A DNA stretch of 64,000 nt, taken from assembly GCA_014237925.1 (NCBI GenBank), contig JABACB010000001.1, positions 32,374-96,373 on the forward strand, given 5' to 3'. A program made the position numbers and the translations under genes. Each line of letters begins with the position of its first letter. Position 1 is the first letter of the stretch. The stretch is from Alphaproteobacteria bacterium (GTDB taxonomy: Bacteria > Pseudomonadota > Alphaproteobacteria > JABAAW01). Under the pieces are notes generated by a model that did no database searches, was not told the DNA's origin, and was given only the letters and a program-made list of their open reading frames with translations. Positions 825 through 61,722 of the stretch are shown piece after piece.

Positions 825-892
825 CCAAGATTTTTATGCCAAGATTTTTGTGTCAAGATTTTTGCGTCAAGATTTTTGTGCAAGATTTTTGT
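825..892. repeat. tandem repeat, 13-bp unit caagatttttg(y)g x5
   Basis: Direct reading of the gloB–udg junction. Confidence 0.9.
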
Positions 893-1530
893 GAAAGAGT
901 TTTCGCTCGCCGCACGACCCGCTCGAACATGGCAGTCGACAACAATCCGCGCGAGGTGTTGCGACGCGAACAATGGTAGGAATCGACGATCACAGCTCCG
1001 TCCAGTCGATACTCGGCGGCGTGGCGAAAGGGAAAGGCGCAGTAGGGCTTGAGCGCGAAGAAATCGAGCAGCGCGCGATGCGCCACTCCTCCGAGCGCGA
1101 GAAACACGCGCGCTTGCAGCCGCCGCAGTTCGGCATGGAAGAAAGGTCTGCAGGCTGCAATCTCTTCAGGCAGAGGCTTGTTTTCGGGAGGCACGCAGCG
1201 CAGCACATTGACGATGCGACAGCCTATAAGGGTCAGACCGTCGTCCTTCTCGCGGCGGTAGCGTCCGCGCGCGAGCTCGAGTTTTTGCAAGGTTGCATAC
1301 AACAAGTCGCCCGCCGCATCGCCGGTAAAGGGTCTGCCCGTTCTGTTCGCGCCCGAAAGCCCGGGCGCCAAACCGACGACGGCAAGCGCGGTGCGCTGCT
1401 CGCCAAAGCAGGGAACGGGCGCGTTGTGCCAGTCGGGAAAACGACGGCGGTTGGCGAGACGAAAGTCTCTCAGACGCGGGCAGAGGTTGCAGTCGCGCGA
1501 AGGCTCGCTGAGCGCCGCGACCATCGTCAA
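853..1530 (-). CDS. uracil-DNA glycosylase, family 4 (Fe-S containing)
   Basis: N-terminal CNLCPRL cysteine motif, GLAPG...GRPFTG motif and HCSRRN (HPSPLN-like) motif. The 3' end runs into a tandem-repeat array. Confidence 0.7.
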   Translation of the reverse strand: MTMVAALSEPSRDCNLCPRLRDFRLANRRRFPDWHNAPVPCFGEQRTALAVVGLAPGLSGANRTGRPFTGDAAGDLLYATLQKLELARGRYRREKDDGLTLIGCRIVNVLRCVPPENKPLPEEIAACRPFFHAELRRLQARVFLALGGVAHRALLDFFALKPYCAFPFRHAAEYRLDGAVIVDSYHCSRRNTSRGLLSTAMFERVVRRAKTLSQKSCTKILTQKS

Positions 1531-1540
1531 TAAATCTCGG

Positions 1541-1630
1541 TCAACAAGGCTCGCTCAACAAGGTTCGCTCGACAAGGTTCGCTCGACAAGGTTCGCTCGA
1601 CAAGGTTCGCTCGACAAGGCTCGGTTGCGC
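1541..1630. repeat. tandem repeat, 15-bp unit caaggttcgctcgac x6
   Basis: Direct reading between the udg start and the NYN gene end. Confidence 0.9.
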
Positions 1631-1634
1631 TCGG

Positions 1635-2294
1635 CTACGGGTAAGGATGGTGACCGCGCGCCGTGCTGCCGGGCTCGATAGGGTCGCGCGTGATGTGGGA
1701 GCGTAGATCTTCCAGGTCGTAGTACTCGTCCACCTGTCGCCGCAGGTCGTCGGAGACCATCGGCGGCGAAGTTTTCAGCGTGCTGATCAGACTGACGCGC
1801 ACTCCCTGCTGCTGGACAACCTGAACAAGGCGACGAAAGTCGCCGTCGCCCGAAAGCAAGACGATGTGGTCGACCGAAGGAGCGATCCGCATCATGTCGA
1901 TAGCGAGCTCCATGTCCATGTTTCCTTTTAGCTTGCGCCGCCCGTGCATGTCGACATACTCTTTCGTAGGCTTCGTGATCACGCTGTAGCCGTTGTAATC
2001 GAGCCAGTCTACCAACGGACGCAGCGGCGAGAACTTTTCTTCGGTGTTCTCTTCGAAGATGGCGGTGTAGTAGTAGGCGCGGATCAAACGCCCGCGCGTG
2101 CGGAAAAAGGTCAGCAGCTTGCCGTAGTCGATGTCGAAGCCCAGCGTGCGCACCGAGGCGTAGAGGTTCGCGCCGTCGATGAAAACGGCCAGACGCTCCG
2201 ACTCGACAAAATTGTTGCTGAAAGACGAAGGGGATGAAGGACTCATGAGCTGCTCCGTTAGAGATTTTTGTCTATGGATGTTCGAAGAATTCAT
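1635..2294 (-). CDS. NYN/LabA-like domain protein
   Basis: 219-aa ORF. The FIDGANLY...LLSGDGDF pattern is typical of NYN (LabA/DUF88) domains. Confidence 0.55.
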   Translation of the reverse strand: MNSSNIHRQKSLTEQLMSPSSPSSFSNNFVESERLAVFIDGANLYASVRTLGFDIDYGKLLTFFRTRGRLIRAYYYTAIFEENTEEKFSPLRPLVDWLDYNGYSVITKPTKEYVDMHGRRKLKGNMDMELAIDMMRIAPSVDHIVLLSGDGDFRRLVQVVQQQGVRVSLISTLKTSPPMVSDDLRRQVDEYYDLEDLRSHITRDPIEPGSTARGHHPYP

Positions 2295-2389: not shown

Positions 2390-3064
2390 ATGGCAAACGA
2401 CCCCGCCACGACATCTCCTGCCAAATCGACTCCGTTGGCGACTCCGTTGGCGACCTCGCTGGCGACCCCGTTGGCGACCCCACTGATGCCGAAGGCGACG
2501 GCGGTTTGGCTGATCGACAACACGGTGCTCACCTTTGCGCAGATCGCCGAGTTCTGCGCGTTGCATCCTTTGGAGGTGCAGTCGATCGCCGACGGCGAAA
2601 CCGTCGCAGGCATCGCGGGCGTCGATCCCGTGCGCAATCGCCAGATCACGCAGGAAGAGCTCGATCGCTGCCTCAAGGATCCGAGCGCGCGTCTGCAGCT
2701 CTTGGAGACCGCTCTGCCCGTTCCCCAAGAGCGCGTGCAAGGACCGCGCTACACGCCGCTGGTCAAGCGGGTTGCCAAGCCTGATGCGATCTTGTGGTGT
2801 CTGAAGAGCTATCCCGATCTTGCCGATGCGCAGATCATCAAGCTCATCGGCACGACGAAAACGATGATCAACACGATCCGTACGCGCTCGCATTGGAACA
2901 TGCGCAACTTGCAACCGCGCAACCCCGCCGATTTGGGGCTCTGCACTTACAGCGAGTTGCAGCGAGCCGTTGAGAAAGCAGAGCGCAACAAGAAACGCGA
3001 ACGCGAAGAGCGTGCGCGTCAAGAGAAAGCAGAGGCGGCGAAAAGTCTTGCCGCCGAACGATAG
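2390..3064 (+). CDS. DUF1013-family conserved alphaproteobacterial protein
   Basis: MPKATAVWLIDNTVLTFAQIAEFCALHPLEV core matches DUF1013 proteins. The N-terminus carries an in-frame PLATPLAT repeat. Confidence 0.65.
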   Translation: MANDPATTSPAKSTPLATPLATSLATPLATPLMPKATAVWLIDNTVLTFAQIAEFCALHPLEVQSIADGETVAGIAGVDPVRNRQITQEELDRCLKDPSARLQLLETALPVPQERVQGPRYTPLVKRVAKPDAILWCLKSYPDLADAQIIKLIGTTKTMINTIRTRSHWNMRNLQPRNPADLGLCTYSELQRAVEKAERNKKREREERARQEKAEAAKSLAAER

Positions 3065-3074
3065 TGCGGAGACG

Positions 3075-3833
3075 ATGGGCGGCGTTGACGTTGGTGTCGG
3101 CGTTGGTGCCTGCGTAGCGCGCCCCGCGCGACATGCTTCTTCCATCGAGGGCAGACTCAACGCCGAGACCGCTTCTGGCATTAAGGCTTGGGTTTTTGAT
3201 CTCGACAACACGCTCTATCCACACCACTGCAACCTTTTTGAGCAGATCGACCGTCGCATGGGCGGCTTCATCGCAGACAAACTGAGATTGCCGCCCGACG
3301 ATGCGCGAAGCTTGCAAAAAGGCTTGCTTCGAGATTACGCGACCACCCTGCAGGGGCTGACGAGTCGCTACGGCATCGACGCGCACGAGTTTCTTTCGTT
3401 TGTCCACGACATCGACTACGCCTGCGTTCCCGCCAATCCTCAATTGGCGGGCTTGTTGGCGGACTTGCCAGGGCGGAAGATTGTTTTTACGAATGCGACG
3501 ACCCGTCATGCCGAGCGGGTGTTGGACAGGCTCCAAGTTCCGCGCGAGTGTTTCGATCACTTCTTGGATATTGCGGCGATGGAATTTCGACCCAAGCCGC
3601 ATCGTGCTTGTTACGACGCGCTTTTGACTCATTGTCGGGTGGCAAATCCGCGTGAGGTCGTGATGTTTGACGACTTGCCGTCGAATTTGAAGACGGCGCA
3701 CGAGTTGGGAATTGCGACTGTTTTGATCGATACGCCGTCGCGGTATGGGCGTTTTGTCGGGGACGAGCGTTATATCGATGCGGTGGCGGAGAATGTCGAG
3801 AGCTTTCTTGAGGGCGCTCTAGGATTTTCCTAG
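3075..3833 (+). CDS. HAD-superfamily pyrimidine 5'-nucleotidase
   Basis: HAD motif I FDLDNTLY. C-terminal MFDDLPSNL/GIATVL motifs. Start at the in-frame ATG at 3075 inside the longer 2970 ORF. The TAG stop lies inside a ctagaattttc tandem repeat. Confidence 0.65.
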   Translation: MGGVDVGVGVGACVARPARHASSIEGRLNAETASGIKAWVFDLDNTLYPHHCNLFEQIDRRMGGFIADKLRLPPDDARSLQKGLLRDYATTLQGLTSRYGIDAHEFLSFVHDIDYACVPANPQLAGLLADLPGRKIVFTNATTRHAERVLDRLQVPRECFDHFLDIAAMEFRPKPHRACYDALLTHCRVANPREVVMFDDLPSNLKTAHELGIATVLIDTPSRYGRFVGDERYIDAVAENVESFLEGALGFS

Positions 3834-3923
3834 AATTTTCCTAGAATTTTTCTGGGGCTTTTTACGGGCGCAAAACATCGCGCGCGTAGCACGCGGGGGA
3901 AGTGGGGGGACGAGTCCCTCCCC

Positions 3924-4604: not shown

Positions 4605-5164
4605 AAGCGCAGATAGAGCATGGCGATCAGCGTGAAAAGACGGCGTGCGCTTGCATGGTCGGTCTCGATCTTGCCTGTCAGCTGCTCGACCAACAATATC
4701 GCCCCCTCGTCGTGCAGTCCGCGCCGCGCGGCGTCGATCGTCTCGATCGTCGAGGGCGAATGCTTTTTGACCGCGTCGTAGTAGCTCTCGCAGATCTGAA
4801 AATAGTCGCGCACGATCTTGCGAAAAGGCGCGAGCGAAAGGAAGATGCGTCCCTGTTCCTCGCCGTGCGTGCCTGCGATCTCGAAGACAAGCCTTCGCTC
4901 TTCGACGCGCAAGCGCAAGCGAAAAGGTCCTGACCACACGGCTTTCTTCTTGTCGTCCTCGCCCTCACAACAAGGACGGAACACATTTTGCGCGATCAAA
5001 TCGTGGATCGCAATCGCACGCTCGCGCTCGACGGCAACGCTGCGCTGACCGAGCGTTTGTTCGTCCAATGCGATGTCTTCGATGCGATCTTCCGCAGAGG
5101 AAGCATCGACAGAATTGTCTGCTGGATTGTCGACAGAATTGTCTTCGGGCGTATCAGGTGTCAC
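4601..5164 (-). CDS. UPF0262 family protein
   Basis: ERERAIAIHDLIAQNVF...LSLAPFRKIVRDYFQICESYYDA...RRGLHDEGA...TARRLFTL matches the UPF0262 family. N-terminal in-frame DNSVDNPADNSVD repeat. Confidence 0.7.
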   Translation of the reverse strand: MTPDTPEDNSVDNPADNSVDASSAEDRIEDIALDEQTLGQRSVAVERERAIAIHDLIAQNVFRPCCEGEDDKKKAVWSGPFRLRLRVEERRLVFEIAGTHGEEQGRIFLSLAPFRKIVRDYFQICESYYDAVKKHSPSTIETIDAARRGLHDEGAILLVEQLTGKIETDHASARRLFTLIAMLYLRL

Positions 5165-6479: not shown

Positions 6480-6488
6480 CCCCTCGTC

Positions 6489-7265: not shown

Positions 7266-7418
7266 AGAAGGGTGGCGAAAGGGTGGCGAAAGGGTGGCGA
7301 AAGGATGGGTTGACTCTTATAAGAAATCGCGTTACACAAAGGAAGACAAGGTCGAAAAGTGAAAACGAAGAGTGGAAACGAAGAGTGGAAACGAAAAGTG
7401 AAAACGAAAAGTGAAAAC
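7266..7418. repeat. two adjacent tandem arrays upstream of hisG and rpsT: gggtggcgaaag x4 and a 14-bp gtggaaacgaagag-like unit x5
   Basis: Direct reading of the hisG–rpsT divergent intergenic region. Confidence 0.9.
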
Positions 7419-7453: not shown

Positions 7454-7903
7454 ATGGCGAATAGCCCGTCTGCACGCAAGCGCATCCGACAGACTCTAAA
7501 GCGCACCGCTCGCCATGGAGCGCGTCGTAGCCGAGCGCGGCGCTTCGTACGCTTCTGCGAAGAAGCCATGGCGAGCATGGCGCGCTCGACAGCTCCTTCT
7601 GCCAAAGAGTTGGCGAAGGACAAGGCGAAGGACAAGAAGACAGCCAAATCATCCTCCCCCAACAGCGACAAGGGTAGCGACAAGGGTAGCGACAAGAGCA
7701 CGGACGAGGGTTCTGCCCCCATCTCGCTGGACGAGCACTTTCGCCGCGCGACGGCGGAGCTGTATCGCGCCGCTCAAAAAGGCGCGCTCCATCGAAAGGC
7801 AGTCGCGCGCAAGGTGTCGCGCTTGTCGAAACGCTTGAAGGCTCTGACGCAAGAAGCAGGCAAAGAAAAAAACCCTTCGACCAAGGACGCGCCGCGCGCA
7901 TGA
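7454..7903 (+). CDS. rpsT: 30S ribosomal protein S20 with internal low-complexity insertion
   Basis: MANSPSARKRIRQ N-terminus and a conserved S20 C-terminal helix. A roughly 60-aa K/D/S-rich insertion (SDKGSDKGSDK) is encoded by a 12-bp repeat. Confidence 0.8.
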   Translation: MANSPSARKRIRQTLKRTARHGARRSRARRFVRFCEEAMASMARSTAPSAKELAKDKAKDKKTAKSSSPNSDKGSDKGSDKSTDEGSAPISLDEHFRRATAELYRAAQKGALHRKAVARKVSRLSKRLKALTQEAGKEKNPSTKDAPRA

Positions 7904-9015
7904 CCCTGGCAAGCTTAAGGGCGCGGAGGGGGGCGGCGAAAAGGGTTGTCGACAGAGTTTTCAGCGTGAGCGCAAGGACGGCTCGTCTTTCCGTCCTTCT
8001 GCTTGCAACCTCCCTGCTTCTCGTCTCGTGCGCGAAGGACAGGAAGCAAGTCGGCGGTGGACGCGGTGCCGTGCGCGTCAGCTCCGGCGATGTTATCCTC
8101 GATCCGCGTTTCTCGGTCTTCTTGTCCAAAGCCTACTTCGCGGTCGCCTCCAGACGCGAGGCGGTCAAGCGCGTCAAGCTGATCAAGAAAGGACGCCGCG
8201 CCGCACGCGGAGAGATCGTCGATCCTGTCGCAGTCAAGCGCGGCAGACGATGGAGAAACGAGGATACCGCATGGGTCAGACAACAACGACAAAAGCTCGA
8301 CGCTCTGCTGGCAACGGTCGCCGGCGACAACACGGCGATGTTCGCCTCGGCAGCCCTTGCGCAAGCCAACTTCGACTGCTGGTACTACGAGATGTACAAA
8401 GCCCCTCTCACCTCGCGCAACAGCGCGTGCGCCTTGGACTTGGCAGCAGCACTGGGTGCGGTGCAGGCACGAGCTGCGGGCGGACAGCAAACATTTCCGA
8501 GCAGGGAAAATCTGTCCGGTGCCATCGCGCGTCCGGGCGCACAACAGGGTTTTGCAACAGGACAACAATTCTCCCTCTTGAAACGCTATTTGGAACAGAG
8601 GGATATCGATACTCTTCTGATGTTGCTCCAGCGGGGCGACACCGACATGAGGGCGGTCGTCGAAAAACTCGTGCAGCAGGAGCTGCAACAAACCCCGGGC
8701 GGTGCGCCCTTGCCCGTGTGGCAGATCACCTTCAAGGGGCAGAAGCGCAAGCTCGCCAGGAAAGAAAAGAGGACGATCAAACGAATCGCCGAGTGGTACA
8801 AGACGCAAGAGGGGAGCGTTAATGTTCGTATCGAAGCCTCCAGCCTCGATTCTGATCGTGTCGAGGCGATCGTAGCCGCTCTTGTCGGACGCGGCGTTGC
8901 CGAAAAATCGCTGCTCTACGGCGAGAGCGTCGGCAGCGAAGGGGGAGCAGGACAAATTACACCAGGACAAGTCATTCTTCGCGCACAACGTTCCACTTCG
9001 AGCGTAGAGCCATAA
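7900..9015 (+). CDS. lipoprotein with degenerate OmpA-like C-terminal domain
   Basis: Signal peptide with LLLVSC lipobox. C-terminal NVRIEASSLDSDRVEAIVAALVGRGV...GESVG resembles the OmpA peptidoglycan-binding domain. Confidence 0.45.
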   Translation: MTLASLRARRGAAKRVVDRVFSVSARTARLSVLLLATSLLLVSCAKDRKQVGGGRGAVRVSSGDVILDPRFSVFLSKAYFAVASRREAVKRVKLIKKGRRAARGEIVDPVAVKRGRRWRNEDTAWVRQQRQKLDALLATVAGDNTAMFASAALAQANFDCWYYEMYKAPLTSRNSACALDLAAALGAVQARAAGGQQTFPSRENLSGAIARPGAQQGFATGQQFSLLKRYLEQRDIDTLLMLLQRGDTDMRAVVEKLVQQELQQTPGGAPLPVWQITFKGQKRKLARKEKRTIKRIAEWYKTQEGSVNVRIEASSLDSDRVEAIVAALVGRGVAEKSLLYGESVGSEGGAGQITPGQVILRAQRSTSSVEP

Positions 9016-9117: not shown

Positions 9118-9340
9118 ACGGGGGAATTGCACGGGGGAATTGCACGGGGGAATTGCACGGGGGAATTGCACGGGGGATTGGGGGATTGCGTTAAGCTCTC
9201 GATGGGGAGTCTACAAGAAGATGACCATGCCACACAGCGAAGCCACCAGCGATACAAGCCAGCGATACAAGTCAGAGGCGACTAGGCAGAGGAGTCTTGA
9301 AGGAGGGCTTGAGGGGGTCTTGAGAGAGGGCTTGCCGGAA
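9118..9340. repeat. cluster of tandem repeats upstream of lpxC: cgggggaattgca x4, agcgatacaag x2 and tcttga(g/a)gg units
   Basis: Direct reading. Confidence 0.85.
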
Positions 9341-9369: not shown

Positions 9370-10449
9370 ATGAGAGCGGCAGCAGATGCGGCAGTAGGCG
9401 GCGAAAGCGTCGGATCGAGCGTCTCCGCCGAGAAGGCGGGATTGGAAGCCTGGGAAGGAACGCTCGCGCGCCCCGTCTCCCTCAAGGGTCTTGGCGTGCA
9501 TTCGGGACGCGATGTCTGTGTCGCGTTGCGTCCGAAGGAGCCGGGTTTTGGGATCGTGCTTCGCAGGACCGATCTTGCCAACGGACAGCGCGACATTCCC
9601 GTGCACTACGAGCGCGTCGAGCCGCGACGCTTGTGTACGAAAGTTGTCAATGACGCGGGCATGGCGGTCTCGATGGTCGAACATCTCATGTGCGCGCTCG
9701 CGATTGCGCAAATCGACAATCTTCTCGTCTTGCTGGACGCCGACGAGCTTCCCATCCTCGACGGCAGCGCAGAGCCGTGGCTCAAGGCGATCTTCGATGT
9801 CGGCGTCGTTCGACAAAACAAACCCCGACGCTACTTGCTGGTAAGCAAACCCGTCGAGGTGCGAGAAGGCGACCGCTTCTGCCGTCTCCTGCCCTTTTCG
9901 GAAGGAACGGAAAGCCTGCCTTTCTCCGCAACGGCGACAGATCCGTTGTCTCATCCAAAATTGTCCCAGCCCGAGCTGTCCCAGCCCGAGCTGCCCCAGC
10001 CCGAGCTGTCGCATCCCATGCTGTCCGTAGATTTTTTGATCGACTTCCCGCACCCTGCGGTCGGACAGCAGCGTCTGCAATTTGCGCCCTGCTCGCGTGG
10101 CGCGTGGCGCGAAGGGATCGCGTCTGCGCGAACCTTTGCCTTCAAGGAAGAAATCGAACAACTGAGGAAGCAGAACTTCGCCCTGGGCGGTTCGCTCGAC
10201 AACGCCGTTCTTGTCGACGATCAGGGCATCGTCAATTCGGAAGGACTGCGCTACAAGGACGAGTTTGTTCGCCACAAGGTTCTCGATCTCTGCGGCGATC
10301 TCTACCTCGCCGGCATGCCGATCGTGGCGCGTGTGGAGGCTTGCAAATCAGGGCATCGGCTCAACAATCGCCTTCTCCACGCCCTGTTTCAGGATACGCA
10401 AGCATGGCGCGAGGCGCATCTGCCTTCAGCAACCCCCTCCTCTTTTTAG
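9370..10449 (+). CDS. lpxC: UDP-3-O-acyl-N-acetylglucosamine deacetylase
   Basis: Full LpxC homology (GLGVHSG, HKVLDLCGDLYL). An in-frame 15-bp x3 repeat insertion (LSQPELSQPELPQPEL) sits at 9955-10015. Confidence 0.85.
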   Translation: MRAAADAAVGGESVGSSVSAEKAGLEAWEGTLARPVSLKGLGVHSGRDVCVALRPKEPGFGIVLRRTDLANGQRDIPVHYERVEPRRLCTKVVNDAGMAVSMVEHLMCALAIAQIDNLLVLLDADELPILDGSAEPWLKAIFDVGVVRQNKPRRYLLVSKPVEVREGDRFCRLLPFSEGTESLPFSATATDPLSHPKLSQPELSQPELPQPELSHPMLSVDFLIDFPHPAVGQQRLQFAPCSRGAWREGIASARTFAFKEEIEQLRKQNFALGGSLDNAVLVDDQGIVNSEGLRYKDEFVRHKVLDLCGDLYLAGMPIVARVEACKSGHRLNNRLLHALFQDTQAWREAHLPSATPSSF

Positions 10450-10527
10450 GAAGGGGAGCAGGGCGGTAGCCGTAGGGCGTTGTTGCGCGAAGAAGATCTG
10501 TTTTTTGAATCTCTAAACGCAAGGCGG

Positions 10528-10586
10528 TGCAAAATGCGGCTGGGGAGACTCGAACTCCCATGCTGTTGCCAGCGGCAGATTTTGCA
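10528..10586 (-). ncRNA. tRNA-like minihelix (T-arm plus acceptor stem, no D or anticodon arms) inside an extended hairpin
   Basis: Minus strand reads GCCGCTG-(10 nt)-GGGAG TTCGAGT CTCCC-CAGCCGC-A. That is a canonical T-stem and loop with a paired acceptor stem carrying one C-C mismatch. It is flanked by complementary TGCAAAAT/ATTTTGCA. Confidence 0.35.
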
Positions 10587-11037
10587 TCCTCCCACGGCTT
10601 TCGCCGCCCTCAGGCACGCACGACGGCGACGCCCAAGGTTCGGAGGCTGGACTTTCCCTTCGCCATGAGCCCAGCATTTGCATGCAAGCTTTTAGGCGAG
10701 CGCCGTCAAGTCTCTACACCTTCCTCGTCGCTCGCGCCGCTACAGAGCGTGCAACAAGGCTTGGCACGGGATTGGCATCGCTCTGGGGAGGAAAATCCTC
10801 CGTTCGAGCGCAAAGCGTTCCCCGTTTTTGACGCTTGCTCACCGCACGGTTTCCCGTGCGGGGACCCATGTTTTCCGCTCTTCTCCCTCCTTCTCGTCAA
10901 AGGTTCTTTGCCGAGAGAGCAGGGCGGGAGGGAACTTCGAGTCTGCTGCGTCTACCGATTCCGCCACAGCCGCAGCCGCACACCACTACTAACACGTCGG
11001 CGTTGCAACGGCAACAACTATTGGCGATGTTAGGGGC

Positions 11038-11958: not shown

Positions 11959-12767
11959 TGCGTCGACTGGCAACATTCGTAGCAACATCGGCTGTCGCGC
12001 TCGCCGTCGTCGTCGCGCCGTCCTTTGCCGAAGAGCGTATCGTCGTCGATTTGTCGCGATACGATGTTCCCGTCTCGACGGGATTTTCAGGCGCAAGACT
12101 TCTTCTCTTCGGCGCAAGCCCCCAGGGCGACAGCGGTGATGCGGATATTCTCATCAAGGTGCGCGGTCCTTTGCAAAGCTACACCATGTCGCGCAAGGAG
12201 CGCGTCTTCGGCTTGTGGCGGAACGGCGCACGGCGGCACATCTCTTCTGCACCCGCTTTCTTTCAAATTCTCACCTCGCAGAACGAAGACAACTGGTTCG
12301 AGGACTTCGAACGCCGTCGCAACGCCTTCTCCTTCCGCAATCTTTCCGTTTCCGTCAAGAGCGCTCCGCCTCGCTCCGCCGACACTCCAGCGCGACAGCA
12401 AGAGCAACTTCGAGAACAGCAGCAAGAGCAGCAGGCTTTCCGTTCCGCCTTCCTGCGTCTGCAGGGACGCAAAGGGCTCTACGGAAAGCTGCCGAACAGC
12501 ATCGAGAGGTTAGGCAACAATCTCTTTCGCGTGAACCTCACGCTGCCGCCGGGGCTGCCTACGGGAACCTACATCGTCGAAACCTTTCTGATCGAAGAGG
12601 GAAAGCTTTCGAGCGCGCAGGCAACCCCCCTGTTCGTGCGTCGTGCCGGCGGCAGCGCCTTCATCTTCGCCTTTGCCGAGCGCTACAGCTTTCTCTACGG
12701 CTTTTGTGCCGTTCTCATCGCGTTGCTTGCAGGTGTCGTTGCGAATCGGCTCTTCGCCCGTTCGTAG
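11958..12767 (+). CDS. TIGR02186-family membrane protein
   Basis: Signal peptide, C-terminal TM segment, conserved position directly after the TSUP gene. ATG overlaps the upstream TGA. Confidence 0.55.
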   Translation: MRRLATFVATSAVALAVVVAPSFAEERIVVDLSRYDVPVSTGFSGARLLLFGASPQGDSGDADILIKVRGPLQSYTMSRKERVFGLWRNGARRHISSAPAFFQILTSQNEDNWFEDFERRRNAFSFRNLSVSVKSAPPRSADTPARQQEQLREQQQEQQAFRSAFLRLQGRKGLYGKLPNSIERLGNNLFRVNLTLPPGLPTGTYIVETFLIEEGKLSSAQATPLFVRRAGGSAFIFAFAERYSFLYGFCAVLIALLAGVVANRLFARS

Positions 12768-23452: not shown

Positions 23453-23608
23453 CTTGTAAATTTTCTTGTGTAAATTTTCTTGTGTAGATTCTTTTATGTA
23501 GATTATTTTGTGTAGATTTTTTTGTGTAGATTCTTTTGCGTAGATTTTCTTGTGTAGATTTTCTTGTGTAGATTTTCTTGTGTAGATTTTTTTGTGTAGA
23601 TTTTTTTG
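23453..23608. repeat. largest array: roughly 15-bp unit tgtgtagattttctt x about 10 (variants tgtaaattttctt, tgtagatttttt)
   Basis: Direct reading between the cdsA start and the uppS stop. Confidence 0.9.
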
Positions 23609-23627
23609 TTGGCTCTTGTGGTTCAGC

Positions 23628-38897: not shown

Positions 38898-38935
38898 CTT
38901 GATTTAACTAGCTTGCTTAAACTAGCTTGCCTTAA
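38895..38935. repeat. tandem repeat aactagcttgc x3 between convergent AsmA-family gene and tyrS
   Basis: Direct reading. Confidence 0.85.
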
Positions 38936-38955
38936 AAGGCTTCTTAAGCGGCGTT

Positions 38956-44280: not shown

Positions 44281-44285
44281 TCTAT

Positions 44286-44396
44286 CGTTATTCGGTACTC
44301 TGTTGTTATCCGTTACTCTGTCGTTACTCTTGTTCGTTACTCTTGTTCGTTACTCTTGTCGTTACTTTTGTCGTTACTTTTGCGTTACTTTTGTCG
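44286..44396. repeat. tandem repeat, 12–13-bp unit gttactcttgttc x about 8 between trpD and trpG
   Basis: Direct reading. Confidence 0.9.
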
Positions 44397-48394: not shown

Positions 48395-48546
48395 GAAAGA
48401 GGAGAAGGAAAAGGAGCAGGATGAGAAGGAGCAGGGACAAAGGGGACGAAGGGGGGGCAGTTGTTTTTCTTGCCATGTGTTTGGGGATAGGCTAGAGGGG
48501 GTTTGGATTTGTTTTTGTCGAACGGATATTTTTTGGGAGAGGGGGG

Positions 48547-49787: not shown

Positions 49788-51323
49788 CTAGGAAAAAACA
49801 TACTCCGAAACAACAGACGAAACCTCGCAAGACGACAGAGCAACTCGAAAATCCTCCTTCACGCGCTCCATCGCTTCCCTGTCCTCCCCCTCGCAACGCG
49901 CGACTAGCCCATCCTCAAACCGAGAAACCCGAACAATCCATCTCCCGTAAGAAAACTCCCGCTCAACTTCCTCCGTAGAGACACTCGCAGATACATTCGT
50001 AGACGCATCGCCCAAACTGCCATCTCCCGCCTCAACACAAGACTCCGCACAAGAGTCAACATAAGCGCGCAACTGCATCAACAAGACATCCTTGTTGTAA
50101 AGCCCCCCCCCCTCCTCTGTCCTTGCAACAAGAACCCGCAACAACTCCGAAACCCCTCTCGTCGAAGGCACGGCACGCAGAGCCTCCAAACGAATCGAGC
50201 TCATAGCCACCCCCGAAAGAAAACGCAGCGCAACATAAAACGCATCCTCAAACGGATAGTATTTGTCGCACAAAGCGATATGACCGTCGCAAGAAAAGGT
50301 CGAACAAGAAGAAGAGGAGAAGTCACCTCGTTGCGATGCCACTCGATCGGAAGACAGACAAGCGAGCATCTCCGCCCCGAACTCCGAACAGCGCACGACG
50401 CGCACACCCCAAGATTCCCACTCTCGAACCGCTTGCCTTTCCGCCAGCCCGTCCGCAAGCACAACACGCTGCGCAACACGCTGCGCAACATGCTTGCCCG
50501 CAGAAACATCCCCCCGCAACAGCAAGCCGAACAGCTCCTCTGGCGAAAGCTCCCTCCCCCCGACGAAAGCTTGCAACGCCGTCCCGTCGCTGTTGAACAG
50601 AAAACCCACCTGCTCGCGTTCCTCGCGCAGCGCGAGACGCAACGCAGCAACATCCTCCAGCACCAGCACTTGCTCTGCATGCGCCGAAAGCTTTTTGGCA
50701 ATCGCCTCCAACACCCCCTCTGAACTCCCATACGCGCTTTGCGCCAACAGCACGCGCGGTAGCAAACGCCGAACCCTGTTTTCGCCGCCTGCTGCGCCGT
50801 CGTCTTGCCGCCACGCGGTCTCGGCGAAAAGACGCATCGTGTAGGCGTCCACGCCCTCCGATTTTGCAAGCCGCCCCCCCGAAGCCTTGCGCCAGCTGCC
50901 GTTCGCAGCAATGTTGCGCAACCGCAACGCGCGCTCCGCGTCCAAAGCCGAGTTCTCAAGAAAAATCTTCACACCGCTGTGCGTCTTAGGCAAGGAGCCG
51001 CGCGACACCGAAAGAGCAACCTGCGCATGCAACTCGGTTGCCGCAAAGCGCACCAACGGCGCAGGAGAGACCGCGAAAGAAAGGACTCGAACTCCACACT
51101 CCAACAACCCTCGCACAACCTCGCTCTCCAAAGGCACGGAGAGAGGATGCGAATCCGAAGCGACGCAGGCATAGACAATAGGATGCCGATGCTGCAGAAA
51201 AGCACCGACCGCCTTGCCTAGAAAGTAGCCGTCGGCGAAATCCAAGCTCTCGTCCAAAGTGCCGAACATTCCCTGCTCGCCGAAAAGGCGCGATTCCAGA
51301 CGATACCCGTCTTCTCCGACCAC
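49788..51323 (-). CDS. phosphohexomutase (PGM/PMM)-family protein, divergent active site
   Basis: Domain I pattern GLLECGVRVLSFAVSPAPLVRFA...ALSVSRGSLPKTHSGVKIF aligns to G..V..G...TP...FA...ITASHNP..NG.K. The Ser is retained but the HNP motif is lost. Confidence 0.5.
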   Translation of the reverse strand: MVGEDGYRLESRLFGEQGMFGTLDESLDFADGYFLGKAVGAFLQHRHPIVYACVASDSHPLSVPLESEVVRGLLECGVRVLSFAVSPAPLVRFAATELHAQVALSVSRGSLPKTHSGVKIFLENSALDAERALRLRNIAANGSWRKASGGRLAKSEGVDAYTMRLFAETAWRQDDGAAGGENRVRRLLPRVLLAQSAYGSSEGVLEAIAKKLSAHAEQVLVLEDVAALRLALREEREQVGFLFNSDGTALQAFVGGRELSPEELFGLLLRGDVSAGKHVAQRVAQRVVLADGLAERQAVREWESWGVRVVRCSEFGAEMLACLSSDRVASQRGDFSSSSCSTFSCDGHIALCDKYYPFEDAFYVALRFLSGVAMSSIRLEALRAVPSTRGVSELLRVLVARTEEGGGLYNKDVLLMQLRAYVDSCAESCVEAGDGSLGDASTNVSASVSTEEVEREFSYGRWIVRVSRFEDGLVARCEGEDREAMERVKEDFRVALSSCEVSSVVSEYVFS

Positions 51324-51880: not shown

Positions 51881-51992
51881 GGAAGAATCAGGTGTGGATC
51901 ACGAGGGCGGGTGTTTTTCTTTGTGGAAAAAACATTGCATGAGAGGAAAAAAACTTGACACAGGTTATTGTACGCTGTAAAACGAAAAACAA

Positions 51993-52120
51993 GATAGGCG
52001 ACGGCAAAATAGGCGACGGCAAAATAGGCGACGGCAAGATAGGCTTCTTCGCAGGAGGGCTATAAACCATTCCTTTGCACCGTTCCTTTGCACCATTCTT
52101 TTGGATCGTCCTCTTGGCGA
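51993..52120. repeat. tandem repeats upstream of glnA: gcgacggcaaaatag x3 and cattcctttgcacc x3
   Basis: Direct reading. They sit in the glnA 5' region and may be regulatory. Confidence 0.8.
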
Positions 52121-53683: not shown

Positions 53684-53817
53684 CTGAAGCTCCAAGGGAG
53701 CGTAGGAAGAGGTTTGTGGAGCAAACGGAATAGAGGAATAGAGGAATCGGTGCCGATCAAAGACTTATGGTGGCAAAATTCTTTTCTGTTGGAGCGCGTT
53801 CAGTTTTGTATAGCGTT

Positions 53818-54555
53818 TTATTTTTCTCCGTTAATCAGGGTTCGCAGTTTTGTTCCCAATTCGTTACTCTTAAACCAGCAAGGGTCTTTTTCCATGAGTA
53901 CGGTAGGTGTTCTTGGGATAACGCCGGAGCTGTCTGCTATTGAGGCAGGGAGACAAAGACGCCAATCGTCGTAAGAAGCTCTTATAAGATTTTCATCTGT
54001 TTCTGTTTTATAAAATTCTTTTAACCAAAGAATCACTTCTTTGTCAGCAATCAGATGCAGTCCTCTGTCCAATGATTTTCCCTTAAAAATTGCGTTGGAA
54101 GAGTTGCACAAAAGCAAGTCGAAATCTTTCACGGTATATCGATCGTTCGTTGTTCCTTGTAATTTTAGGTTGCTGCGTGATTTATGACACTTAACCTTAA
54201 AATACGGCACGTTTTTATCTCGTCCCGATGTTCTCAAACTTCCACGCACGGCATTTTTTGTCTCAGCTTTTAATCGTGTTCCTGTTCTGCGGAAAGTAAT
54301 GCTTATATCCTCGTCGTATTGATTTTGCTGAGGATTAAGATTAAGTTTTTGTACATCCCAGTCTCTAGCATCCAAAACTTGTCGAAGAAATGCTGCCCCA
54401 ATATACTCTGTGGCTTTTCCTCGAATCATGGGCAATACTTTTTGATCTTCCAGTATATCAAGCAAGTTTTCTAAAGGTATATTGTATGTTTTACAATATG
54501 TCTTTATACTGTCGTAGATGACGAAGTCCTCTTTACTTTTTGTGTTTTCAGACAT
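53818..54555 (-). CDS. uncharacterised 245-aa protein coupled to the Dam-family MTase; candidate type II restriction endonuclease or defence effector
   Basis: Low-GC, K/N/I-rich ORF whose start overlaps the MTase stop by 8 nt. Possible PD-(D/E)xK-like YDED...AETK. No family recognised. Confidence 0.4.
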   Translation of the reverse strand: MSENTKSKEDFVIYDSIKTYCKTYNIPLENLLDILEDQKVLPMIRGKATEYIGAAFLRQVLDARDWDVQKLNLNPQQNQYDEDISITFRRTGTRLKAETKNAVRGSLRTSGRDKNVPYFKVKCHKSRSNLKLQGTTNDRYTVKDFDLLLCNSSNAIFKGKSLDRGLHLIADKEVILWLKEFYKTETDENLIRASYDDWRLCLPASIADSSGVIPRTPTVLMEKDPCWFKSNELGTKLRTLINGEK

Positions 54556-55600
54556 TTAAGCCACAGCTGTAATTTTGGATAAAAATTTCGGATCCTTTGG
54601 TACGTTTGCTTTTATATCCGTCCTTTTTCTTTCTTCCGTTTTTTTGGTCGTCGGTTCTATTGATAGTGTAATTCCATTGGTGTGCGTGTATTTTATCGAC
54701 CCACTGATACAAATGACGTACATCGTTATGGTCGTCGTAAGTTAGCAAAAACTTGAGCCTCGTGGAATTGCGTTGCAGACAATCCGCCAACCGCTTATGG
54801 TCGTGAGATGAAAAAGTGCAATTATAAAATTTTTGCTGATCCGCGTTGTAGTAGGGAGGATCTACGAAAAGAAAGCTTTCGTCGGGTTGTTTGTCAATAA
54901 TGTTCTCAAAATCACAGCTCGAAAGTTCTGTGTTTTGCAGCTTGTCAGATACTGTTCTCAGATGCGGTCCCCAGTTGCAGGGACGCATAGAGTACTTGTC
55001 GCCAAAGCCCCAATAACAGTTTTCGAAGCGCATAATGCCGCTGTAGGATGTTCGATTTAAATAAAACCATCTGAATGCTCGTTCTAAATTGTTCCGAGGG
55101 CGATACATGTCTTTGTAATAGGTATGGAGCTTCTTGTTAGCTTCTATGTTGCCAAATTTTTCTATCAGAAGCTCTACATTGTCTCGAATCTGTTTTAGTG
55201 TATTGACGATCTCCCAATCCAAATCATTTAAAATCGAATGCTTTGCAGTTTCCTTGGCAAAAAATATCGAAGCCCCCCCCGCAAAGGGCTCGCAGTAATA
55301 TTCGTGTTGCGGTATTAAACCCAGTATCAGCTTTCTTGCGTAAAATTTACCACCAGGGTAGCGGAAGGGAGAATTAGATTTGCCCGATTTGACAGCTTGC
55401 CGATCCTTTTGTTGTTGATGAATTTTACCAAGATGACAATTAACCTTTAACCATCGTTGTGCATCGGTGCAACGATCCTTAAAAGATTTTCTAAAAAAAT
55501 CTTTTGTGAAGGAAAAGTCTTGACCAACATCGTCATTGCCAACCAAATATCTTGGATGGCGTTTGTTGTCGATTCTGTCGTGTTCTTCGTTCTGTGCCAT
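54548..55600 (-). CDS. DNA N6-adenine methyltransferase, Dam/M.EcoRV family
   Basis: FRYPGGK (Dam motif), EPFAGGASIFF (SAM-binding FxGxG) and LFVDPPY (DPPY). Clear similarity to M.EcoRV segments. Has an N-terminal extension of at least 75 aa. Embedded in AT-rich DNA. Confidence 0.8.
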   Translation of the reverse strand: MAQNEEHDRIDNKRHPRYLVGNDDVGQDFSFTKDFFRKSFKDRCTDAQRWLKVNCHLGKIHQQQKDRQAVKSGKSNSPFRYPGGKFYARKLILGLIPQHEYYCEPFAGGASIFFAKETAKHSILNDLDWEIVNTLKQIRDNVELLIEKFGNIEANKKLHTYYKDMYRPRNNLERAFRWFYLNRTSYSGIMRFENCYWGFGDKYSMRPCNWGPHLRTVSDKLQNTELSSCDFENIIDKQPDESFLFVDPPYYNADQQKFYNCTFSSHDHKRLADCLQRNSTRLKFLLTYDDHNDVRHLYQWVDKIHAHQWNYTINRTDDQKNGRKKKDGYKSKRTKGSEIFIQNYSCGLNV

Positions 55601-55714
55601 CTCTACCGCTCTATTTGCCAAAGGCATTGCCAAAGAAACTTGAAAAAAAGTAGCGCCAGAAAAAATCCTTGTCAACATAAAATATCTCCATCTCAAGCCC
55701 CTTGCGTCTCCATC

Positions 55715-58477: not shown

Positions 58478-58525
58478 GGCAGGAATGTCGTTTGCGTGTT
58501 GTTAGGGTTGTTATTGTTGTGGTTG

Positions 58526-60730
58526 TTATTGTTGCTTGTTTTTTTGTTGCTTGTCTTTTTGTTGTTTATCTTTGTGATGGATTTTTGTGAAGTCGGCGAG
58601 TTCCAAGAATCGTCGGTAGATGCTGTATAGCAGACGGAGTCGGTTTTGTCGAATGTTTTCGTGCTTGTCTATAACGAGGACATGGTCGAAGAAGGGGTCG
58701 ACGGCATCTTTGAGGCTGCCGAGCGTTTGTAGTTTTTGGGTGAAGGTTAGGTTTTGCCATGCGCTTTCTGCGAGGAGTTGATGCGTGCGGGCGTGTAGAT
58801 TTCTTTCTTCGGTTGCTGAGAAGAGGTCGGGGGAGGGGGGGGAGGTGAAGGAGGAGAAATCATCGGAGTAAGGGCGTAAGATAGCGTGCAAGCGGTAGAA
58901 AATTTCTGCCAAGGGGTTGTTGTTGTCAATTTCTTTTGCCAGTTTTATGGTATGATAATAGATTTGGTGGATATTGCATTCTTGCGCGTTATCGTGCGTT
59001 AATACGGCTTCGATGCAATCGTGCGGTAGTTGTTCGTGGTCTTTGATGAAGACGCGTAGCCTTTCCAGTATGAAACTGACGATTTCCTTCAATAGTAATT
59101 CACGAGACTCTCCGTAAAAAGGACTGTCGTCTACATGCTGTGTGGAGAGAATTTCTAACGTACTTTCAAATACGCCTTTTAGAGGTAGAGATATGTTTTT
59201 CAAAGCAAATATAGTACCAAGGGCGTACCGCCGTAAAGCAAAAGGGTCGCCAGAGCCGGTGGGTTTTTCTCCTACGCTCCAAAGGGAGACAAGGGTGTCG
59301 ATGTTGTCGGCGATGTCGGCGATGTCGGCGGCGTTGGCTATGCCGACGATGGCGCGAGAGATAGAGGCACTGGATTTAAATTTATTGTCTATCAGTTCTC
59401 GGCTAATTGATTTTTGCAAAGAAGGAAACTCTCGGACGGTTTCTGTTGCCAAACCGAAATTCAACTCATCAACTTGCCTTTCAAACAAAGCGGGATCGTA
59501 TTCACTGTCCAGCGCAGGATCGTCGTTGTTGTTTTTTAATGTCTCGACAATAACAGGGATCAATCGCTTGGTGCGTTGGTTTTTATCTGCGATTGTTTTT
59601 AATTTTGGATGGAAAATTATATTTTGTAGTTTATTGATAAATTCCTCTATAGGAGTTTTTTTATCACGTTCCCACATAAATTTTGCGTCCGCCAGCCTTG
59701 CCCTCACCACGCGTTCGAAGCCTTTAATGATATTGTTTTTTTCTTGTTTTTGCTTGATATACGGGATATTCGTGATAATAAAAAATTCACCGTCTCCGCT
59801 TTTAACATTTGAGTCGCGAATCATTTTTTGATGTTCGCTGAGAACCGTGTTGATGAGAAAAGATGGCAAATCGTTAAATTCTTCGTCAAAGTGACCTTTA
59901 AAAACGATAGGATATTCGGTCAAGCATGCGTTTTCTTGTAGCAGACGATATTTTCTAGGAAATTCTGCTTTATAATCGTAGACGGAATTGCCTGCTACAT
60001 TTTCAAAAATTTCATCAAATCTTTTTTGATAGATTGGCTCAACATAGTTTTTACGCAACTTGTCCTCGTAGTCTTGTATGCCCGTAACAACGATAGTGCC
60101 AGATGAAGCAAAAGGATGCCCGCGCGTCTTACGCGTAAAAGATAGATTTTCCTTGTTACCTAATTCTAACGCACCCTTGACACCCTTTCCTGCAAACACC
60201 GCCGTGATATGTCGTAAAGGACGCACCCAACGAAAATTTTGTTTGCCAAAACGCATCCTGACAGGTAATTCTTTCGCCATCCTCCCGATCACCCGCACGA
60301 CCACCTCCTCCAAAAGTTCGCTCAACGAGAGTGCTATGTGTCTTACTGTAAAAGCCCAGTAATCTCCTTTCTTTGCGTCTGCAACACGCCGACACTCCTT
60401 TGTCGTTTTCAATCCGTTCGCTCGCAAGAATCCGTCGATCGCCACTTGTGGAGAATTGACACGCGGCCCTCTGCGCTCCTCCTCCCAAGCCTCGCTTCGC
60501 ACAGGAACATCGGCAATCCCCACCGCAACCCGCCGCGGCGTCCAATAGACACGCCGCTCGCCAAAGGTGTTTTCTGTGTTCTGTAATCCCAACGCCTTCA
60601 CCAGCTCCTCTTGCAAAAACTTCTCTAGTTTGCGAGTCATAGGTTCTTGCAAGTTCCACGGAATTTCTTCGCTGTATAACTCAATGAGAAGTTCTGCGGT
60701 TTCTTTTTTTTCTTCCTTTACCACAGTCAT
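58526..60730 (-). CDS. glyS: glycine--tRNA ligase beta subunit
   Basis: Full-length GlyS homology. Start at the internal MTVVKEE overlapping the glyQ stop (ATGA). The interior 58.9–60.3 kb is strikingly AT-rich. C-terminal [17 protein letters not shown] tail. Confidence 0.85.
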
Positions 60731-61629
60731 GATTCTTCCTCCTTCATCTCGCGCCTCTCTTCTCCCAACCACACCGCGCAGCAGGCATGCGCCATCTGCC
60801 TTACGCGCAAAATATAACTCGGTCGCGCGTTCTGCTGTACCGCTCCCCGTGCATCCATAAGATTAAAGGTATGCGAGGCTTTTAGGCAATAATCGTACGC
60901 AGGCATCGCATCGTATTTATTTCCCTCCCGCGCCGCGTCGCACAAGGCGATACATTGTCGCTCGCATTCGTCAAATTGCTCCTCTAATACCTTCACATCG
61001 GCTTGCTCGAAGTTAAACCTGCCGTAAGACTTTTCCATGCCCTCATACACATCGCCATAAGTCATGGCATCGTTGTATTGCAAGTCAAAGATTCTCTCCT
61101 TGCCTTGCAAATACATCGCAAGCCGCTCCAACCCGTAGGTCAGCTCGGTCGAGACAGGCTCGCAGGCAAACCCGCCCACCTGCTGAAAATAGGTGAACTG
61201 CGAAACCTCCATGCCGTCACACCATACCTCCCATCCCAAGCCCTTCGCGCCCAAGGTGGGGCTCTCCCAGTCGTCCTCGACAAATCGAATGTCGTGGCTC
61301 TCGACCTTGATGCCGATCGCACGCAAGGAATCCAAATACAACTCCTGACTCTTCTCAGGCGAGGGTTTCAACAACACCTGATACTGAAAATAATGCTGCA
61401 AGCGGTTCGGATTCTCGCCGTAGCGACCGTCCGCAGGACGACGGCAGGGTTGTACATACGCCGCCCGCCACGGCTCGCTACCCAGCGACTTCAACGCCGT
61501 TGCCCAGTGGAAAGTGCCTGCGCCTACCTCCATGTCGTAGGGCTGCAAGATGACACAGCCACGCTCAGACCAGTAATCGTGCAGCGTCAAGATCATGCGC
61601 TGAAAGGAGGAGGGGGAGGGGGTCGCCAT
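60727..61629 (-). CDS. glyQ: glycine--tRNA ligase alpha subunit
   Basis: 300 aa, highly conserved GlyQ (MILTLHDYW...[19 protein letters not shown]). Confidence 0.9.
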
Positions 61630-61673
61630 AGGGCTTCGATTCTAACGCGCTCTCGGTGGTATGGCAACAAGGG

Positions 61674-61722
61674 CGGGCTGCGGTCGGGCTGCGGTCGGGC
61701 TGCGGTCGGGCTGCGGTCGGTC
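61674..61722. repeat. tandem repeat, 11-bp unit gggctgcggtc x4–5 in the glyQ/carB divergent region
   Basis: Direct reading. Confidence 0.9.

Follow-up and report, generated by a model that had tools for sequence, protein, structure and literature searches.

Numerous tandem repeat arrays with locus-specific units in a compact housekeeping region of a small-genome alphaproteobacterial clade

Gene content and placement of the arrays

We analysed a stretch of 64,000 nucleotides (hereafter the window) from contig JABACB010000001.1 of assembly GCA_014237925.1, in which short tandem repeat arrays recur between and within the genes. The window belongs to a small group of alphaproteobacteria that is represented solely by metagenome assemblies and has genomes of about 1.5–1.9 Mb, one of which is circular according to the name of its contig, the largest of the clade (1,902,689 bp, from the species represented by loci L165–L167). 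A gene map was built with a self-trained codon model and Pfam, and the bamA-frr block was named via exact Frr protein matches. The map depicts a compact alphaproteobacterial housekeeping region (92% coding, GC content 58%), with TrcR, Alph_Pro_TM, UPF0262 and LpxI among its clade markers. The first part comprises gloB, udg, NYN, trcR, maf, hisD, hisG, rpsT and lpxC; the lpx block follows in the order lpxB-lpxI-lpxA-fabZ-lpxD-ompH-bamA-rseP-dxr-cdsA-uppS-frr-tsf-rpsB; pnp, rpsO, truB, a yhdP-like gene, tyrS, moeA and moaC come after rpsB; and the last part contains trpC, trpD, trpG, two class-V aminotransferases, glnA, ppdK, glyS, glyQ and carB. No disrupted genes were found in the window.

Altogether, Tandem Repeats Finder (TRF) detected 36 arrays totalling 2,074 bp (Table 1), after overlapping rows were merged and arrays with a period of at least 6 bp, at least 2.5 copies and a score of at least 40 were kept. 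Their units measure 6–36 bp, mostly 11–15 bp, and are present in 2.5–11 copies per array, with within-array unit identities mostly of 80–100% (range 66–100%). Every array location named by the original prediction, which was made from the sequence of the window, was recovered. The same prediction described the arrays as filling intergenic spacers, and this holds for the 19 that lie in spacers or straddle gene ends, whereas the other 17 are located in-frame inside open reading frames (ORFs). The spacers total 5.0 kb, 21% of which is array sequence, and they are about 13 times denser in arrays than coding DNA (3.8 versus 0.29 arrays per kb). Among the spacers of at least 20 bp, 16 of 33 carry an array (9/22 same-strand, 4/7 divergent and 3/4 convergent spacers). 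The C-termini of udg and glyS are themselves encoded by array sequence.

Array density in the clade and in other bacteria

Dinucleotide-preserving local shuffles of the window (n = 30) contained 0.4 arrays on average and two at most, so the observed 36 correspond to an approximately 90-fold enrichment. For comparison with other genomes, a common threshold was applied to all sets (period 7–40 bp, at least 2.8 copies, score of at least 50). Members of the clade were collected in several ways, yielding about 280 kb of examined clade sequence in all. The exact Frr protein of the window was found on three contigs from related samples (L001–L003), which are 98–99% identical to the window in DNA; exact-protein look-ups of rpsO, NYN and glyQ for further same-species contigs gave no match. 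A PNPase scan of one genome per GTDB species returned only two close relatives, namely L004 (metagenome-assembled genome JABAAA01, 90% identity) and L005 (CBDCGG01 contig_2, 1.63 Mb, 89%), all other genomes of that scan being at most 62% identical to the window pnp. A search with the NYN protein gave seven relatives at 83–93% identity, on contigs that reach 1.50, 1.63 and 1.90 Mb. The controls comprised 78 other pnp loci, mostly alphaproteobacterial (1.41 Mb), and 80 metagenome hisD loci (0.67 Mb), 2.1 Mb together; the latter came from a HisD metagenome scan that yielded only distant relatives (at most 49% identity) and thus served as extra controls.

The window carries 4.5 arrays per 10 kb, the same-species contigs L001–L003 4.4, L004 and L005 4.0, L164 6.3, and L168 and L169 5.3–5.8, as against 0.27 in the 78 pnp loci and 0.16 in the 80 hisD loci. 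Clade density is therefore about 17 times that of relatives, and the highest value in any control locus of at least 10 kb is 1.8 per 10 kb. L004, L005, L164, L168 and L169 thus have 4–6 arrays per 10 kb, and contig names of the types ctgN_117x_l and ctgN_89x_c suggest that long reads underlie some of the assemblies with the density of the window. These figures bear out the proposals that the repeat density is unusual for a bacterium and that it is specific to the lineage, since clade members share it and genomes with a pnp identity of 62% or less do not; the comparison with related genomes that had been suggested as a check thus came out at 4–6 versus 0.16–0.27 arrays per 10 kb. The species of L165–L167 has only 0.5–1.5 arrays per 10 kb.

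The excess is concentrated in particular unit lengths. Perfect tandem repeats with units of at least 11 bp occur at 33–34 per 100 kb in the clade and at 2.0 per 100 kb in the controls, whereas those with 7–9 bp units are only 1.7-fold above controls; no 10-bp units were seen among the perfect tandem repeats of the clade. The excess thus has a real mode at about 11–15 bp. The number of bases beyond two perfect units, a possible microhomology signature of array birth, is broadly distributed (0–14) in clade and controls alike. Di-, tetra- and hexanucleotide repeats showed no enrichment in the clade relative to controls, trinucleotide runs are approximately 10-fold enriched, and homopolymer runs of at least 7 nt occur at 70 versus 11 per 100 kb (~6-fold), an excess to which base composition may contribute. 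In the window, 38 of the 44 homopolymers of this length are inside genes, mostly outside arrays, with reading frames intact; runs of 10 nt occur, for example, at 27572, 31642 and 50103.

This spectrum bears on mismatch repair, a peculiarity of which the original prediction offered as an example of a cause. Weakened or lost MutS/MutL would let slipped intermediates persist, and the enriched homopolymers and trinucleotide runs are what such a deficiency might leave behind. However, the units are far longer than the MutS loop limit of about 4 nt in Escherichia coli (an example of MutS-dependent repair of ~1–4 nt loops was reportedly given by Parker and Marinus in 1992), the di-, tetra- and hexanucleotide classes are unaffected, and no 1-bp indels separate the window from L001–L003, although just three runs of at least 7 nt lie in the compared sequence, all within the cdsA/uppS array. 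Mismatch-repair deficiency as the explanation therefore carries very little probability, while the homopolymer enrichment leaves room for a contribution from such a defect.

Relatedness of the units

The units of an array are contiguous and arranged head-to-tail, with a spacing equal to the unit length and nothing unique in between, according to both TRF and a repeat search. Comparison of units between arrays gave a mean best cyclic match of 0.614, against 0.602 for shuffled units. Each array has its own unit sequence because, in our interpretation, duplication of local segments can strike anywhere in the genome. The repeat search found no long dispersed repeats in the window, and scans of the window with Rfam and ARAGORN (for tRNA) returned no matches. 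Accordingly, two claims made earlier from the sequence stand: the contiguous units are not CRISPR, and the arrays are mutually unrelated rather than copies of one dispersed element. CRISPR was rejected on the lack of spacers between units and of any Cas domain among the Pfam matches of the scanned window ORFs (the bamA-frr block being outside that scan). A dispersed repeat family of the REP/BIME, MITE, STRR or MIRU kind was rejected likewise, as the units are no more alike than shuffled ones and long dispersed repeats are missing from the window.

By eye, three AT-rich spacer arrays (817–893, 23455–23609 and 25144–25219) have a loose AGAYTWTTCTTGT-like unit in common, which is inverted in the third of them; the gloB-proximal unit holds TTGACA on the sense strand of the gene. 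This resemblance may be accidental, the overall comparison of units having been negative. In L166 and L167, presence/absence indels of 71–299 bp between strains (L166 7809–7890, 8154–8336 and 11416; L167 14190–14488 and 14638–14708) hold a recurring sequence (...CGCAAAACTCACTTCGCC...CTCGCTCGTCTTGCGTATGTTACC...) with the look of a small dispersed element of MITE type, to which the window has no match at up to three mismatches.

Frame-preserving units in coding arrays

Unit lengths differ sharply between coding and spacer arrays. In the window, all 17 coding arrays have units that are a multiple of three (6, 9, 12, 15, 21, 30 or 36 bp), compared to 4 of the 19 spacer arrays, where the remaining units are 7, 8, 11, 13 and 14 bp long (Fisher p = 7e-7). 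Extension of ORFs through stop-free arrays is a possible bias of this test, which was repeated in two ways. When the test was limited to window arrays with conserved protein core on either side (in LpxC, Alph_Pro_TM, RseP, UppS, TruB, PGM and GlyS), seven of seven had frame-preserving units (p = 5e-4). With database gene calls for three other species, the same was true for 30 of 31 coding arrays and three of seven spacer arrays (pooled p = 5e-11).

The coding arrays specify short, mostly hydrophilic peptides such as LSQPE, SEV, GEND, NDTE, ETREQ, TRME, KDKQQ and GGGGDRR, with 3–12 residues per unit, placed at termini, linkers and loops. This frame filter is the mark of mutation that is blind to sequence, with purifying selection acting afterwards. 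Frame-shifting contingency loci were rejected as a candidate class, given the frame-preserving units in 17/17 coding arrays of the window and 30/31 of the relatives and given coding polymorphisms of 9 and 12 bp.

Core proteins of the window, L005 and L164–L169 markedly exceed their Pfam domains in length. For instance, S2 (rpsB, window 26215–27348) has 377–380 residues with the domain ending at residue 250, S20 (rpsT, 7568–7903) 111–197, TruB (30352–31524) 390–494, where the upper values come from uncalled stop-to-stop ORFs, and PNPase (pnp, 27475–29808) 777–807 including a (GGGGDRR)n tail; LpxC ranges from 354 to 427 residues across the clade.

Copy-number change between strains

Global alignment of the window with L001–L003 revealed 0.1–0.9% substitutions and only four indel sites, all four of which add or remove whole units of an array detected by TRF, namely 13 bp in the frr/tsf spacer, three units of 14 bp in the cdsA/uppS spacer (11 versus 8 copies), 9 bp in uppS and 12 bp at the dxr N-terminus. 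In a 6.4-kb stretch, four of five arrays differ, compared with 24 substitutions among 6,407 sites. By this estimate, an array changes about 200 times as often as a single site is substituted, which is well above background but far below classical phase-variation rates. With head-to-tail units and whole-unit copy-number differences between strains, the arrays qualify as variable number tandem repeats (VNTRs), and the slippage or expansion process proposed originally is supported by these changes.

Comparisons within the other species point the same way. The indels of at least 6 bp among L165, L166 and L167 (2.2–2.5% divergence) and between L168 and L169 (4.4%) have length peaks at 12 and 15 bp. 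Called protein lengths vary among these strains (268, 263 and 258 residues for TrcR; 363, 402 and 354 for LpxC); the TrcR differences amount to one 15-bp unit each, while those in LpxC are due partly to loop copy number and partly to differing start-codon calls. The 12- and 15-bp peaks of strain indels in L165–L167 occur despite the low array density of that species.

An assembly error, or one of the known repeat classes (CRISPR or dispersed elements such as REP, MITE and STRR), was considered as an alternative source of the arrays. Repeats can break assemblies, and contigs L001–L003 do end at or near arrays. On the other hand, the same arrays are present in these three independent contigs, and the same phenomenon is seen in the high-coverage assemblies of related species; known classes are opposed by contiguous, mutually unrelated units and the lack of Rfam matches. 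The frr/tsf array is long in L003, as in the window, and short in L001 and L002, which shows that the polymorphism is not just assembly collapse. We regard an artefact or a known repeat class as barely credible.

Turnover between species

Even though L004 and L005 share synteny with the window (72–89% DNA identity), their arrays occur elsewhere or have other units. In the orthologous spacers of L004, L005 and L164, the arrays of the window are missing or built from different units; in L005, for example, the cdsA/uppS and frr/tsf spacers are about 50–60 bp long and have no array of three or more copies. Iterons and arrays of transcription-factor sites were ruled out by the lack of a conserved unit at orthologous positions in these three loci.

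Inside genes, different repeats appear at the same site. The TruB loop is occupied by 9-bp SEV repeats in the window, by 15-bp EDGGG repeats in L004 and by 12-bp KESSEESS repeats in L005. The inter-domain loop of LpxC contains four LSQPE copies in the window, four MMTP/MMSPP copies in L164 and two to three PANTS copies in L166, with one PANTS fewer in L167 than in L166 and no repeats in L168 and L169. The (GGGGDRR)n tail of PNPase is the sole array type kept in all three genomes compared (the window, L004 and L005), and it may have acquired a function.

Tests for a regulatory role

Several arrays had been supposed to lie in promoter regions and to modulate expression through copy number. A consensus scan gave 5, 6 and 11 sigma-70-like sites against 3.7, 3.1 and 6.7 in shuffles, which is no significant enrichment; a single site falls entirely within an array, that of cdsA/uppS, and another overlaps the array at 3819–3850. 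Convergent spacers, which hold no promoters, contain arrays in three of four cases. The supposition thus gains no support, and the idea of arrays as promoter modules was set aside, since these consensus-predicted sites are not significantly enriched and rarely fall in arrays. There is no sign in these data of positive evidence that the arrays are regulatory, although in a few cases they may incidentally alter expression or protein tails.

A broader version of this idea would have copy number set promoter spacing, operon expression or linker length, making the arrays genome-wide contingency or "tuning knob" loci. Many arrays are indeed upstream of genes (hisG/rpsT, lpxC, glnA, frr and cdsA), strains differ in copy number, and the promoter-like site in the cdsA/uppS array could be read in the same way. 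Against such adaptive tuning, neither unit sequences nor copy numbers are conserved between species, arrays also occupy convergent spacers and core enzymes, promoter-like sites are not significantly enriched, coding arrays never frameshift and hence cannot switch genes on and off, and the genes concerned are housekeeping genes rather than surface or restriction genes. Adaptive tuning is decidedly improbable.

Origin of the arrays

The arrays are probably ordinary slippage-type VNTRs, or bacterial minisatellites, whose production runs at an elevated rate particular to this lineage and whose survival is decided by selection. At birth, a local segment, most often of 11–15 bp, would be tandemly duplicated via nascent-strand misalignment in replication or repair. 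Growth and shrinkage, observed as gain and loss of whole units, would proceed by slipped-strand mispairing. Selection then acts as the filter visible in the unit lengths, with only frame-preserving units at tolerant sites surviving in genes and any length surviving in spacers; spacers are about 13 times denser in arrays because any unit length survives there. Replacement of arrays outpaces species divergence, new units re-colonising the same tolerant sites. For the most part, the arrays are probably by-products with little or no effect on fitness.

The cause may be a lineage-specific property of replication or repair that lets loops of about 10–15 nt form or persist, with RecJ, ExoI, ExoVII, ExoX, flap processing by Pol I, RNase H and properties of the replisome or the single-stranded DNA-binding protein as candidates. 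We tentatively entertain a more specific possibility, namely a heritable mutational signature of ~11–15 nt tandem duplication and expansion arising from changed lagging-strand or flap processing or from changed surveillance by single-stranded DNA exonucleases. Here, the candidates would be a defect in the Pol I 5'-nuclease or RNase H that leads to re-ligation of primer-sized flaps, or loss of nucleases of the RecJ, ExoVII or ExoX type. The preferred 11–15 nt unit is near the length of bacterial primers, which is suggestive only. Work of the Lovett laboratory on single-stranded DNA exonucleases and replisome mutants is said to point to such causes, as is that of Nagata and co-workers in 2002 on the Pol I 5'-nuclease, and so are the duplications of yeast rad27 mutants.

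A raised input rate in the clade is what we infer, and it has to be weighed against relaxed selection alone, by which slippage products arising at a normal rate would go unpurged in a small-genome, possibly host-associated lineage of small effective population size. The clade contigs of only 1.5–1.9 Mb (one circular), the enriched homopolymers and the inflation of housekeeping proteins by repeats are all in keeping with this idea. However, selection still works in the clade: the window is 92% coding with short spacers and no disrupted gene found, the frame filter is almost perfect, and the ratio of non-synonymous to synonymous divergence (dN/dS) between strains is 0.14–0.15 at dS of 0.05–0.14. 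Since relaxed selection alone fits poorly with these four observations, and since the arrays turn over fast instead of just accumulating, we consider it unlikely.

Several points weigh against raised production of slippage-type VNTRs. The homopolymer excess is not predicted by a pure "large-loop" model, and for the cause of the raised rate only candidates are at hand. A raised birth rate is not cleanly separable from weaker purging, and the trait is not uniform in the clade, as the low density in the L165–L167 species demonstrates. There is a small probability that the loose AGAYTWTTCTTGT-like unit of the three AT-rich arrays reflects a shared motif. Finally, the window allele is the longer one in all four differences from L001–L003, so some collapse in the other assemblies is possible, although three of the four changes fall in arrays of only 25–76 bp.

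Other features of the locus

A low-GC island (53800–55700; 0.41 versus about 0.59) encodes a D12-class N6-adenine DNA methyltransferase (54548–55696, minus strand) and an adjacent 245-residue ORF without a Pfam match (53818–54555, minus strand), which are probably a horizontally acquired restriction-modification-like pair. The third-codon-position GC content of glyS (58526–60772) is 0.48 versus about 0.70 in its neighbours, and the GC content of the 58–60 kb segment is 0.46, whereas glyQ next to it shows no such shift, which suggests that glyS differs from its surroundings in origin or in constraint.

Two ORFs recur at conserved positions. A Pfam-less ORF of 351–389 residues lies 3' of rpsT in the window (7900–9015, plus strand) and in every clade locus (e.g. 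L164 2988–4157, L166 2964–4019 and L168 3208–4371); judged by its recurrence in sequence, it is a putative clade-conserved protein of unassigned function. The 588-bp lpxC/tauE "spacer" contains a 168-residue ORF (10527–11033, plus strand) that was missed by the gene model and has a called counterpart of 180 residues, also without a Pfam match, at the same position in L164 (924–1466); it is probably a real small gene.

Table 1. Tandem arrays of the window as merged from TRF output, with window coordinates
Position	Strand	Unit and copies	Unit sequence	Location and remarks
817–893		14 bp x 5.6	TTTTTGTGTCAAGA	gloB/udg spacer, running over udg stop codon
1544–1623		14 bp x 5.7	ACAAGGTTCGCTCG	udg/NYN spacer
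2427–2481	+	12 bp x 4.6		in-frame; TrcR N-terminal region, STPLA repeats
3819–3850		11 bp x 2.9	CTAGAATTTTC	between convergent HAD hydrolase (3' end) and maf
5106–5143	-	12 bp x 3.2		in-frame; UPF0262 N-terminus, DNSV repeats
7268–7308		11 bp x 3.7		hisG/rpsT divergent spacer
7353–7418		13 bp x 5.1	CGAAAAGTGAAAA	hisG/rpsT divergent spacer
7664–7696	+	12 bp x 2.8		in-frame; S20 (rpsT) N-terminal extension, SDKG repeats
9118–9177		13 bp x 4.6		upstream of lpxC; 100% unit identity
9289–9334		11 bp x 4.1		upstream of lpxC
9962–10026	+	15 bp x 4.3		in-frame; LpxC residues 198–219, LSQPE repeats, between two matched Pfam-domain stretches
12396–12434	+	12 bp x 3.2		in-frame; inside Alph_Pro_TM protein
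21233–21257	-	6 bp x 4.2 (alternatively 12 bp)		in-frame; RseP N-terminus, poly-Val
22546–22582	-	12 bp x 3.1		in-frame; Dxr N-terminus; L001 one unit shorter
23455–23609		14 bp x 11.1	TGTAGATTTTTTTG	cdsA/uppS spacer; 8 copies in L001 and L003
23988–24012	-	9 bp x 2.8		in-frame; inside UppS, GEND repeats; L001–L003 one unit shorter
25144–25219		13 bp x 5.8	GAATAGTCTACAA	frr/tsf spacer; L001 and L002 one unit shorter, L003 equal
27445–27469		7 bp x 3.6		rpsB/pnp spacer
27509–27634	-	~21 bp x 5.6		in-frame; PNPase C-terminal tail (GGGGDRR)n; like tail in L004 and L005
30235–30322		18 bp x 4.9		rpsO/truB spacer
30755–30817	-	9 bp x 7		in-frame; TruB loop, SEV repeats; other units at site in L004 and L005
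31540–31574		8 bp x 4.4		truB/methyltransferase divergent spacer
31650–31680	+	12 bp x 2.6		in-frame; Methyltransf_30 N-terminus, NDTE repeats
38894–38936		14 bp x 3.0		between convergent yhdP-like (AsmA-like) and tyrS genes
42266–42357	-	15/30 bp x 6/3		in-frame; MoaC N-terminal extension, ETREQ repeats
44281–44405		12 bp x 7	CGTTACTCTTGT	spans trpG stop codon and trpG/trpD spacer; abuts trpD start
45918–46035	+	12 bp x about 10		in-frame; first class-V aminotransferase N-terminus, MQAE/QQAG repeats
47111–47183	+	12 bp x 6.2		in-frame; first class-V aminotransferase C-terminus, TRME repeats
48382–48421		12 bp x 3.3		aminotransferase/ferredoxin junction
50462–50494	-	12 bp x 2.8		in-frame; inside phosphoglucomutase-like protein
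51990–52044		15 bp x 3.7		upstream of glnA
52066–52103		13 bp x 2.9		upstream of glnA
53727–53747		8 bp x 2.6		convergent spacer after glnA
58497–58573	-	15 bp x 3 and GTT-rich repeats		GlyS C-terminus (KDKQQ repeats) and part of ppdK/glyS spacer
59305–59330	-	9 bp x 2.9		in-frame; inside GlyS, ADI repeats
61674–61720		11 bp x 4.3		glyQ/carB divergent spacer; 100% unit identity

Comparison with known systems

The nearest described case, by analogy, appears to be Ehrlichia ruminantium, for which actively variable tandem repeats targeted at non-coding regions were described (Collins et al. 2005, Frutos et al. 2006, as outlined in PMC10710844) in a genome that is about 64% coding and whose spacers are long (PMC10710844). 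As far as that outline goes, both are small-genome alphaproteobacteria with many locus-specific repeats that expand and contract between strains. In contrast to E. ruminantium as outlined there, the window is 92% coding with a GC content of 58%, half of its arrays are in-frame in core genes, the units of the clade cluster at 11–15 bp, and at the observed density a genome would hold several hundred arrays.

Loci used for VNTR typing and multiple-locus VNTR analysis (MLVA) in Xanthomonas, Clavibacter and Mycobacterium (MIRU-VNTR) are head-to-tail, copy-number polymorphic and attributed to slipped-strand mispairing, as here. Typing schemes for those genomes use from a few loci up to a few tens per genome, and extrapolation from the ~280 kb examined gives several hundred arrays per 1.5–1.9 Mb genome in the clade. 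MIRUs are a dispersed family with units of 40–100 bp, whereas each clade array has a unique unit. Contingency loci of Haemophilus, Neisseria and Campylobacter likewise change copy number by slippage, and some of their arrays, as here, stand beside promoters. Such loci have units of 1–8 bp and shift the frame or the promoter spacing of surface and restriction genes; in the clade, the units are longer, always a multiple of three inside genes of the window and found in housekeeping genes, and the rate of change is modest. The cyanobacterial STRR heptamers and the enterobacterial REP, BIME and ERIC elements also place short repeats across intergenic spacers genome-wide, but with one or a few conserved sequences at many loci instead of a different unit per locus.

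According to the overall results of a 2025 survey of 117,861 genomes (PMC12699852), bacteria contain, on average, fewer short tandem repeats than shuffled genomes do, and coding repeats with units of up to 9 bp show a frame-preserving bias. The clade shares this coding bias and differs from the averages given there in having longer units and about 90-fold more arrays than shuffles.

Taken together, the arrays fit the VNTR definition, which is known; new are their occurrence in a compact GC-rich clade, the in-frame arrays in core genes, the 11–15 bp mode and the density.

Biological significance

The pattern is better accounted for by a mutation process that generates repeats unusually actively than by a system of regulation. 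Measured against the averages in PMC12699852, a compact GC-rich lineage breaks the bacterial depletion rule by over an order of magnitude. The arrays reach essential genes, including lpxC, pnp, truB, rpsB, rpsT and glyS, and provide a live view of proteins acquiring low-complexity loops and tails. They also make the mutational spectrum readable, with raw unit lengths in the spacers and a frame-filtered version in the genes.

In practical terms, the arrays are ready strain-typing markers for an uncultured group, and they call for caution, as they coincide with contig ends and as copy number and start-codon choice alter called protein lengths between strains. Given the variation in density within the clade, comparative genomics could name the factor that normally suppresses slippage of 10–15 nt in bacteria. 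If a distinct mutational signature is indeed at work, the low-density species of L166 would provide an internal control in the search for the gene behind it, and the clade would constitute a natural bacterial model for the origin of minisatellites and of repeat-encoded disordered segments.

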